IMG/VR virus record: IMGVR_UViG_2529292829_000015
Reading direction: 5' to 3' (one strand)
DNA length: 9,660 nt
DNA from: a virus
Lineage: Duplodnaviria > Heunggongvirae > Uroviricota > Caudoviricetes
Shown here: positions 2,919-5,280 of the stretch, piece after piece
Position numbering within the stretch: the stretch's first letter is position 1
Layout of the letters: each line of letters opens with the position of its first letter
Program-made: the position numbers and the translations under genes
The notes under the pieces: model-generated
What the model saw: only the letters and a program-made list of their open reading frames with translations
The model's database searches: none
What the model was told of the DNA's origin: nothing

Positions 2919-3832
2919 AGATATCTCTTGTAGTTCCTGTCTTCAATGAAGAAGAAGCGATACCAATTTTTTATAAAACGGTACGTGAATTCGAAGAGTT
3001 GAAGCCATATGAAGTGGAAATTGTTTTCATAAATGACGGCAGTAAAGACGCTACGGAGTCAATTATTAATGCTCTGGCTGTTTCAGATCCTCTAGTGGTT
3101 CCGCTGTCATTTACACGAAACTTTGGTAAAGAACCAGCATTGTTTGCAGGGTTAGATCATGCAACAGGAGATGCCGTAATTCCAATTGATGTTGACCTGC
3201 AAGACCCAATTGAGGTTATTCCTCATCTTATTGAAAAGTGGAAGGCAGGCACTGATATGGTGCTGGCCAAACGTTCAGACCGCTCTACAGATGGACGTCT
3301 GAAGCGAAAAACTGCTGAATGGTTCTATAAGCTCCACAATAAAATAAGCAATCCAAAGATTGAAGAGAATGTTGGTGATTTCCGGTTAATGAGCCGTGAA
3401 GTTGTCGAAAATATTAAGCTTATGCCAGAGCGAAACCTTTTTATGAAAGGAGTACTGAGTTGGGTAGGAGGTTCGACCGACATCGTCGAATATTCACGCG
3501 CAGAGCGTGTTGCTGGTAATTCAAAATTCAATGGATGGAAATTGTGGAATCTTGCTCTCGAGGGAATAACATCGTTCTCCACATTTCCTCTTCGTATATG
3601 GACATATATAGGATTATTCATTGCTGGATGCTCATTTATATATGGTGCATGGATGATATTTGACACTCTGGTATTTGGTAATGCAGTTAGAGGTTACCCG
3701 TCGATTATAGTATCAATCCTCTTTTTAGGAGGAGTGCAACTTATAGGTATCGGTGTTTTGGGTGAATATATTGGAAGAATATACATAGAAACAAAACATA
3801 GACCTAGATTTTTATTGAAGGATAAGAAATGA
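2915..3832 (+). CDS. gtrB: GtrB bactoprenol glucosyltransferase (GT2 family)
   Basis: 305 aa. N-terminal GT2 features ([22 protein letters not shown] DxD-type motif) and C-terminal transmembrane helices. ATGA overlap with gtrC at 3829-3832. Confidence 0.9.
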
Positions 3833-5280
3833 AAAAGAATATAATACTCCCAATACTTTTAATTTTATCTGTATTTATATTCTGTTTGTCCGTTGCACTA
3901 AAAAGCAGCATTAATTCAGACTCAGCCTCTATGTATATAGAGGCAATGGACATGGCTAATGGCAACTGGCTTTTAAATGGATGGGACCTGTCAACTGTTC
4001 CTTTCTATTTTACAGACACCTTACTTTACGCAGTAATAATAAAGATATTTGGTCCGCATGAAATATTCATGTGGATTATACCGACTATAATATACACGCT
4101 GTGTGTATTTATATCATCATTATTAATATATTCTTCCAAGAAGAATTATATTGGGCTGATTGCATTGCTTTTTTGCGTTGCTATGCCTTCTGTGTATGCT
4201 TCTAATTTTACATTGGCAATGTGCATACATGTAGGTACCATTCTATTGTCGCTAACGTGTGTATATTTTATCTCTAAAAAATCCAGGTATGCGCCAGCAA
4301 TAATAATTCTTATATCCCCACTCGCTACTTTTAGCGATAAAATTTTCCTGTATTATTTCACGCTACCATTAATGGTGGCTATTGTTTTCTCGCTGTACTA
4401 TGGTTACAAAAAAAAGAAAGAATGCTTTATCTTGTTGATTTCACTATTTGTTTCTGTGGTATTATACAAGTTTATTTCTTTTCTTTCTTGTACATACGGA
4501 ATTATTACCACTCCATGGTCGGCACCCCAAAAATTTGTTGAGTATGACAGATTCCTTTTTAATATAGATCTATTAATAAAAGGGGTGATTTATTATTTCG
4601 ACGCTTTCATTTTCGGTAAAGAACTAGGACCTCAGTCCATTATTTATGCCGGAAGGTTTTTATCTATGTCAATTTGGCTGTCTATCCTTGTCGTTGCGTC
4701 AATAAAAAGGTTCAGGAGCACCGTAATTGACACATATTTAGTTATTGTTACCGCCTTAATGCCAGCAGCCTATATATTCAGCAATTTACCAGGCGACTTG
4801 ATGACAACCAGATATTTTTCATACTCATTTATAACAGGAACTATAATAATAGGTAGATATATACAGGAGTGCAAAGTAAAACCAATTGCATTAATTGGCA
4901 TGGCTTTATTTCTTATTGTAATAAATTTTCAACAAATAACACTAAACAAGCCGAAAGATGATTATTCAAGAGTCGCAAAGTACATTGCAAGTAATAATCT
5001 TGGAGATGGTTTTGGTACATTTTGGGAGGCATCTTCTACCAGCGTCAGGGGTAGTAAAAGTATTTACCCTGTGCTATTCGACAACGGTGAGTTTGTTAAT
5101 ATGAATTGGTTATCGAAAGATGCATGGTATAGCACTAAATCAAGATACATTGTTATAAAAAACGATGACACTGAAATATCAAAAGTTAGTAAAGAGTTCG
5201 GCAGTGATTTTTCCATAATAAGATTTGGTGATCTAGCCGTCATTTCTTACAAAGACGAAAGGATATCTGTCAAAAGGTAA
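3829..5280 (+). CDS. GtrC-type serotype-specific O-antigen glucosyltransferase (polytopic membrane protein)
   Basis: 483-aa protein, highly hydrophobic with many predicted TM segments and a hydrophilic C-terminal domain, translationally coupled to gtrB. Very AT-rich: a 60-nt sample at 3841-3900 has 16/60 G+C. Third position of a gtrABC cassette. Specificity cannot be read from sequence. Confidence 0.75.

Follow-up and report, generated by a model that had tools for sequence, protein, structure and literature searches.

In the three-component Gtr scheme of O-antigen modification, GtrB loads undecaprenyl phosphate (Und-P) with the sugar, GtrA flips the loaded lipid, and a third enzyme carries out the transfer in the periplasm (PMC7685785, PMC11194591). 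The subject here is the third gene of such a cassette, gtrC, which encodes a protein of 483 amino acids (aa) in a stretch of 9,660 nucleotides of viral DNA (Caudoviricetes; IMG/VR record IMGVR_UViG_2529292829_000015), hereafter the window. With a probability of roughly three in four, this open reading frame (ORF) encodes GtrC, the third and type-specific member of a prophage three-component O-antigen glucosylation system, the Escherichia coli O68 O-antigen being the most likely acceptor. What was observed is the order of the genes, the fold, the relationship to the family and the distribution among strains; the donor, the anomer, the acceptor polymer and the expression of the gene are inferred.

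The nearest characterised homologue, GtrI of the Shigella flexneri phage SfI, is responsible for the type I antigen, in which glucose (Glc) is attached by an alpha-1,4 linkage to the N-acetylglucosamine (GlcNAc) of the O unit (PMC3636060). Like the window gene, gtrI stands third in a gtrA-gtrB-gtr(type) cassette beside a prophage integrase gene, and the two are close in length (506 vs 483 aa) and in G+C content (GC; 0.334 vs 0.338). They differ, however, in sequence, with an identity of ~16–23% and a BLASTP alignment that sees the C-terminal 130 residues only, and in their vehicle, SfI being a myovirus integrated at thrW and the window a P22-like remnant at argW. Moreover, the host O-antigen modified by GtrI is the rhamnose (Rha)-containing Rha3-GlcNAc backbone of S. 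flexneri, whereas that of the window is E. coli O68; because the host O-antigens differ, acceptor and linkage need not match those of GtrI.

Another comparator is a Salmonella protein of 484 aa (WP_337923415.1, here P0012; its cluster contains C0PVK7 of S. Paratyphi C), which shares 36% identity with the window protein over the full length and is encoded in a locus arranged like the window, mlaA-yfdC-int-gtrA-gtrB-X, with a convergent gene next that has beta-helix Pfam matches. Like the window gene, it is confined to one O-antigen chemotype, although the O-antigen of its host is a different one. The cluster comprises the serogroup C1 serovars Oranienburg, Ohio, Paratyphi C, Mbandaka, Typhisuis, Livingstone and Rissen, together with one partial member labelled Derby, a serovar outside serogroup C1, and to judge from this serovar list P0012 may be one of the GtrC families V and VI described by Davies et al. 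2013. The C1-restricted families V and VI shift the lipopolysaccharide (LPS) ladder of S. Infantis (PMC3688519).

The remaining type-specific enzymes, namely GtrII and P22 GtrC (PF14264), the HF4s/epsilon34 type (DUF6056), GtrIV and YfdI (WsfD/DUF2142-like) and GtrV, have operon position, presumed reaction class and low GC in common with the window gene but are unrelated to it in sequence. As for other GT-C enzymes, ArnT, PglB/STT3, the protein mannosyltransferases (PMTs), the ALG mannosyltransferases and the Aft arabinosyltransferases show 8–13% identity to the window protein, and ArnT, an Und-P-L-Ara4N:lipid A transferase, uses another donor sugar and another acceptor than those proposed for it.

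The window gene and its family

The ORF singled out in the earlier note proved to be real and intact, running on the plus strand from an ATG at 3829 to a stop codon that ends at 5280, and the copies in four complete E. coli genomes match it with 100% identity. It is indeed a gene in the gtrC position, third and co-oriented after gtrA and gtrB, and both junctions, gtrA/gtrB and gtrB/gtrC, are 4-bp ATGA overlaps. In addition, it sits beside an integrase gene and attachment site (att) at a tRNA gene and has a P22-type tailspike gene downstream, the prophage carriage by which the Gtr class is recognised.

Domain libraries have little to say of the protein. No Pfam or NCBIfam domain was found in it, without a Pfam match even at E 0.1, and PHROGs matched the C-terminal 200 residues only, with families of unknown function. 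PF14264 (Glucos_trans_II), which scores GtrII and P22 GtrC at 107–117 bits, DUF6056, which scores HF4s GtrC at 169 bits, the YfdI/WsfD-like family model, with YfdI and GtrIV matching NF051875, and Acyl_transf_3 all failed to match it. Neither the single protein nor its family profile matched any PDB chain at the sequence level, and tblastn found no counterpart among 50,697 phage records. In BLASTP against characterised or annotated type-specific Gtr proteins, a set that left out GtrX and GtrIc, the best match was GtrI, with 23% identity over 131 aa, and nothing significant was returned for GtrII, GtrIV, GtrV, P22 GtrC, HF4s GtrC or YfdI (E above 1). The suggestion that the specificity is uncharacterised has thus held, as the protein is near-identical to none of these seven and is a 'hypothetical protein' in RefSeq. 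For GtrI, too, Pfam lacks a model.

When 5.8 billion proteins were searched by word index, 11 clusters were recovered at 41–51% identity, from E. coli and Salmonella and all labelled 'hypothetical', and 18 when a profile was used. The wider family became visible only when 1.84 billion representatives were searched exhaustively with a profile; 2001 proteins were returned at E ≤ 1e-3, 176 of them at E ≤ 1e-30, and most matches were full-length with 480–650 aa. This GtrI-like family, amounting to ~2000 representatives at 50% identity clustering, includes members with extensions of 100–180 residues (600–660 aa) and reaches Klebsiella, Enterobacter, Pseudomonas and at least one Firmicute metagenome-assembled genome. 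Its members are annotated as hypothetical, and a relevant Pfam domain was found in none of the 58 that were sampled.

With hmmsearch, the profile of these 58 sequences matched SfI GtrI at E 1.2e-37, profile positions 11–495 lying on GtrI 9–504, and with hhalign the probability was 99.3% (E 5e-20, 443 columns); the SD, H, xDx and RY positions of the family coincide with the GtrI residues D, H, D and R, and the alignment extends to the C-terminal GYGxFW domain. For the non-GtrI types the best value reached by the profile was E 5e-4 (7 bits, GtrII). Because the profile matches SfI GtrI end to end with the conserved positions aligned, the window protein belongs, at the level of sequence, to the GtrI branch of the GtrC enzymes, if as a distant member. 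D31, N46, H134, G394 and G458 are invariant in the 58 sequences, and the near-invariant positions include D170, P120, R328 and Y329.

Relatives at 28–49% identity occupy the third position after GtrA_DPMS_TM and GT2 genes in all six loci retrieved (P0005, P0012, P0008, P0010, P0014 and P0020), four of which continue with a convergent gene that has beta-helix or phage-tail Pfam matches and was taken as a tailspike gene. Salmonella P0005 (47% identity) and P0012 both lie at the yfdC-int site, the metagenomic P0008 and P0010 are found in different prophage backgrounds, each with such a convergent gene next, and Enterobacter P0020 is 603 aa long. Klebsiella P0014 (28% identity) closes a GT4-rich O-antigen-type locus beside the his operon (metagenome contig 4731–7452), which suggests a chromosomally fixed three-component modification of a Klebsiella O-antigen. 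This gtrA-gtrB-GtrI-like triplet occurs in Klebsiella pneumoniae, K. aerogenes, K. variicola and K. quasipneumoniae. A member from Pseudomonas oryzihabitans lies inside a polysaccharide cluster with gtrA and gtrB 4 kb off, and a close-sequence locus search gave three Lonsdalea loci with a family member, whose neighbours stand outside the count of gtrA/gtrB coupling.

Predicted fold and topology

The AlphaFold2 model used was built on the 58-sequence alignment and has a predicted local distance difference test (pLDDT) score of 94.1 and a predicted template modelling (pTM) score of 0.93; a model from nine sequences (pLDDT 67) was set aside. It consists of a membrane domain at ~1–366, with 11–13 membrane helices, and an alpha/beta C-terminal domain at ~378–483. 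In a Foldseek comparison with the PDB, the top 17 matches were all GT-C enzymes, ArnT (PDB 5F15) being the best, and a structure search of BFVD gave weak unnamed matches only. As modelled, the window protein is a membrane glycosyltransferase of the GT-C fold.

The silence of Pfam and NCBIfam would also suit a protein that is not a glycosyltransferase at all, be it an acyltransferase-type 'GtrC', the type of BTP1 and of Salmonella family II, a Wzy/WaaL-like polymerase or ligase, or a transporter, and some genes in the gtrC position do encode acyltransferases, as characterised for BTP1 (PMC4413052) and as annotated at argW in other E. coli. These readings were rejected on the GT-C fold, and there is no Acyl_transf_3 match for an acyltransferase; taken together they are highly improbable.

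Within the membrane domain, loops rich in lysine and arginine (150–154, 191–197, 294–298 and 346–351) alternate with acidic, conserved loops. Such a distribution fits an N-in/C-out topology, in which D31, H134, D170, R328/Y329 and the C-terminal domain would be periplasmic. D31 lies seven residues past the first membrane helix, in a loop (24–59) that also holds E38 and D41.

Strain distribution and the candidate acceptor

Of 5426 complete E. coli genomes, four carry the gtrC gene. Identity to the window is 100% in 027_SK3 and ABW_S38 and 99.9% in KFu015, and in these three strains the module lies at argW behind an intact intS. The fourth genome, that of strain 97.3, is labelled O68:H12, and its cassette adjoins bioA-ybhB rather than argW; this is the lambda att region, where an 84-bp integrase remnant is found and where the gtrABC-tailspike-Arc module (NZ_CP061758.1 3203374–3209937) is 99.5% identical over window positions 2314–8880. 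The P22-like prophage of 97.3 is the fuller of the two, with gp7, gp20 and needle genes. Given the two chromosomal sites, O68-type hosts must have received the module by insertion or recombination at least twice.

Between galF and gnd, 027_SK3 carries the O62/O68 wzx and wzy. The O62/O68 wzy occurs in eight complete genomes, and all four gtrC carriers are among those eight (Fisher p 1.9e-12, uncorrected, and with two of the carriers near-clonal). The receptor-binding part of the tailspike is equally restricted, being found only in the four gtrC genomes, and when the tailspike was compared with sequenced phages, none covered more than 55% of it. Accordingly, the module is an accessory element that is limited to hosts of the O68 type and occupies two chromosomal sites. 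Because of the strict co-occurrence with the O62/O68 wzy, the acceptor polymer would be the O68 O-antigen, whose gene cluster, as called here, comprises dTDP-Rha and GDP-mannose (GDP-Man) pathways and three glycosyltransferases (cf. PMC4384082).

Two further observations concern these genomes. DETEC-P881, which has the O62/O68 genotype, has an empty argW, with yfdC, tRNA-Arg and dsdC contiguous (NZ_CP116100.1 4440359–4441441), and makes a natural gtr-free comparator. In 027_SK3, an IS1B lies between wcaM and galF, upstream of the O62/O68 cluster (NZ_CP067311.1 79720–80417).

Proposed reaction and its alternatives

In the proposed reaction, GtrB would form undecaprenyl-phosphate-beta-glucose at the cytoplasmic face of the inner membrane, GtrA would flip this Und-P-glucose to the periplasmic face, and the 483-aa GT-C enzyme would move the glucose onto one sugar of the host O-antigen repeat. 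For the transfer, it would use the acidic first periplasmic loop (D31, with H134, D170 and R328/Y329) and the C-terminal periplasmic domain. The donor would almost certainly be Und-P-glucose, because GtrB is ~90% identical to the GtrBs of Shigella phages (89–90.5% to those of SfI, SfII, SfV and K-12) and GtrA is 91–98% identical to its counterparts in SfI, SfV, K-12 and HF4s. Given that transfer by GT-C enzymes proceeds with inversion of the anomeric configuration and that GtrI forms an alpha-1,4 bond, the product is probably an alpha-Glc side branch. The restriction of the module to O68-type hosts, as for a phage that modifies its own receptor, argues for the O68 repeat as the acceptor, and the cassette would most likely alter the O68 receptor used by the phage with which it arrived, resulting in superinfection exclusion or in seroconversion within O68. 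The claim that the modification cannot be predicted from sequence was too pessimistic for the donor, the anomer and the acceptor polymer, and stands for the acceptor residue and the linkage position.

Several points weigh against this reading. The O68 link rests on four genomes, of which 027_SK3 and ABW_S38 are near-clonal, and the association could partly reflect the host range of the phage rather than the acceptor of the enzyme. The putative catalytic role of D31 is deduced solely from where it lies and how well it is conserved. Moreover, LPS gels showed no detectable change of the O-antigen for two Salmonella GtrC families, II and IV (PMC3688519), and a position in a gtr operon is therefore no guarantee of an O-antigen acceptor. 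An active GT-C transferase that uses Und-P-Glc but acts on the LPS core, on enterobacterial common antigen or on another periplasmic glycan would agree with that result, with the modification of lipid A by ArnT, the best structural match, and with the presence of distant members in other polysaccharide clusters, such as that of P. oryzihabitans. It is nevertheless improbable, given that the module keeps strictly to one O-antigen genotype along with an equally restricted tailspike, that GtrI acts on the O-antigen (PMC3636060), and that the Klebsiella homologue closes an O-antigen-type locus.

A further objection lies in the state of the prophage. Because its ejection gene is truncated and homology to the 97.3 prophage ends at 8880, the argW prophage is a deletion remnant fused to unrelated DNA, and the operon could be a silent one, in line with a common assumption about yfdGHI of K-12. 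The cassette would then be a relic with a competent enzyme that is unexpressed, or expressed too weakly to change the LPS. The truncation past the tailspike/Arc region is in keeping with such a relic, as are the finding of no strong sigma-70 consensus above shuffled expectation in the scanned region and the case of S. Infantis GtrC family VI, which modified LPS only from a constitutive promoter (PMC3688519). However, gtrA, gtrB and gtrC are intact, with overlapping starts and stops, and are identical across four genomes and two sites, and the upstream region is nearly the same as in the active Shigella phage cassettes and HF4s, so that a silent cassette is considered unlikely.

Base composition

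From the AT-richness of gtrC, the earlier note had derived a distinct specificity and an origin separate from the rest of the cassette. The AT-richness is genuine, with a GC of 0.338 compared with 0.486 in yfdC and 0.472 in intS, and the sampled 60-nt stretch with 16 G+C is typical of the gene, in which 60-nt segments hold 12–29 G+C (mean 20.5) against 20–40 (mean 29.6) in yfdC. On comparison, however, it is evidence for neither conclusion. The third genes of other cassettes are equally AT-rich, with GC values of 0.334 in SfI gtrI, 0.318 in SfII gtrII, 0.333 in SfV gtrV, 0.326 in SfIV gtrIV, 0.380 in HF4s, 0.318 in P22 gtrC and 0.276 in K-12 yfdI; low GC is a property of the gtrC class and nothing special to the window gene.

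At third codon positions, the GC (GC3) of gtrC (0.331) is indistinguishable from that of gtrB (0.314) and of the tailspike gene (0.327), whereas yfdC and intS have 0.547 and 0.523. The gtrB-gtrC-tailspike block is thus foreign to the chromosome at silent sites, and since gtrC resembles gtrB there, composition is no evidence for an origin of gtrC apart from gtrB. The gap between the two genes in total GC has its source at codon position 1, where GC falls from 0.503 in gtrB to 0.335 in gtrC, a drop that mirrors the composition of a membrane protein rich in Ile, Leu, Ser, Phe, Lys and Tyr. With seven other gtrC genes equally AT-rich and the GC3 of gtrB and tailspike alike, AT-richness was rejected as a sign of special origin.

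Regulation and significance

Phase variation of gtr operons by Dam and OxyR carries a signature of four GATC sites (PMC3688519). Upstream of gtr, the phase-variable P22 region has four GATC sites and the window, SfI, SfII, HF4s and K-12 have one each. The P22-type mode was considered for the window, and the four-GATC signature is absent from 2403–2555; with a single GATC in an upstream region like those of SfI, SfII, HF4s and K-12, the cassette is probably not phase-variable by Dam/OxyR.

If the cassette is active in glucosylating O68, strains of this type would be heterogeneous in O-antigen structure, which bears on serotyping, where O62 and O68 show a one-way cross-reaction, on phage susceptibility, and on glycoconjugate work on O68. 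O68-genotype strains that have the cassette at argW, have it at attλ or have an empty argW constitute a natural experiment. A wider proposal can be put forward tentatively, at somewhat less than even odds: that the gtrABC-tailspike module defines an unrecognised glucosylated O68 subtype comprising about half of the sequenced O68-genotype strains, and that its GtrC belongs to a large, unmodelled GtrI-like family that is coupled to GtrA and GtrB in the enterobacteria examined, Lonsdalea aside. Such a subtype would parallel the serotypes of S. flexneri and the O77 group. The GtrI branch is a broad GT-C family that lacks a model and that annotation labels 'hypothetical protein', and the window gene is of use in annotating it. 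The understanding of the Gtr mechanism is unchanged, and the system is otherwise textbook and unsurprising to the specialist.

Features of the window and neighbouring genes

The window is a piece of E. coli chromosome, and its features are collected in Table 1. The order yfdC-argW-intS is that of K-12.

Table 1. Features of the window, with positions counted from its first nucleotide
Feature	Position	Strand	Evidence or remark
yfdC	1–933		lies upstream of argW
tRNA-Arg(CCU) argW, prophage attachment site	1009–1083	+	ARAGORN
intS-type tyrosine integrase	1209–2402	+	Pfam Arm-DNA-bind_3, Phage_int_M, Phage_integrase; RefSeq = intS
gtr upstream/regulatory region, Shigella/K-12/HF4s type	2403–2555	+	single GATC at 2498
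gtrA (yfdG), 120 aa, Und-P-glucose flippase	2556–2918	+	Pfam GtrA_DPMS_TM 1.8e-13; PHROG 2224 1.5e-70
gtrB (yfdH), 305 aa, GT2 bactoprenol glucosyltransferase	2915–3832	+	Pfam Glycos_transf_2 3e-31; PHROG 841 4.5e-166
gtrC-type gene, 483 aa	3829–5280	+	RefSeq WP_001723753.1 'hypothetical protein'
Stem-loop, 14 pairs and 9-nt loop, probable terminator	5296–5332		between convergent gtrC and tailspike genes
P22-type tailspike	5337–7355 (ORF 5337–7403)	-	Pfam; RefSeq WP_001723754.1, coding sequence (CDS) of 672 aa

The stem-loop between gtrC and the tailspike gene folds as RNA with -21.1 kcal/mol (z -6.2) on the plus strand and -22.8 kcal/mol (z -5.7) on the minus strand, and a U-rich tract follows it on the tailspike (minus) transcript only. 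A simple terminator scan missed this hairpin, the loop of which exceeds 8 nt; P22 has an annotated terminator at the matching position.

The tailspike begins with a P22-type head-binding domain at the N-terminus, continues as a right-handed beta-helix and carries at the C-terminus a Peptidase_S74 domain, an intramolecular chaperone. Its start is probably the Met at ORF residue 17, the first 16 codons being left untranslated, because the head-binding domain begins at residue 17 and the RefSeq CDS has 672 aa. Beyond the tailspike gene lies an Arc-like gene, before the partial gene of a DNA-ejection protein (gp20-like; 7755–9047, minus strand), which matches the C-terminal half of its PHROG profiles only. 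An ORF at 8992–9336 matches PHROG 1229 (unknown function), and another at 9460–9660 looks, by eye, like an AlpA-type regulator.

In other E. coli, the yfdC-argW-intS-gtrA-gtrB site continues with a third gene annotated as a glucosyltransferase domain protein, a DUF6056 protein, a YfdI family protein or an acyltransferase. Each of these alternatives is paired with a different tailspike, and the locus is in this sense a swap site for type-specific modules.

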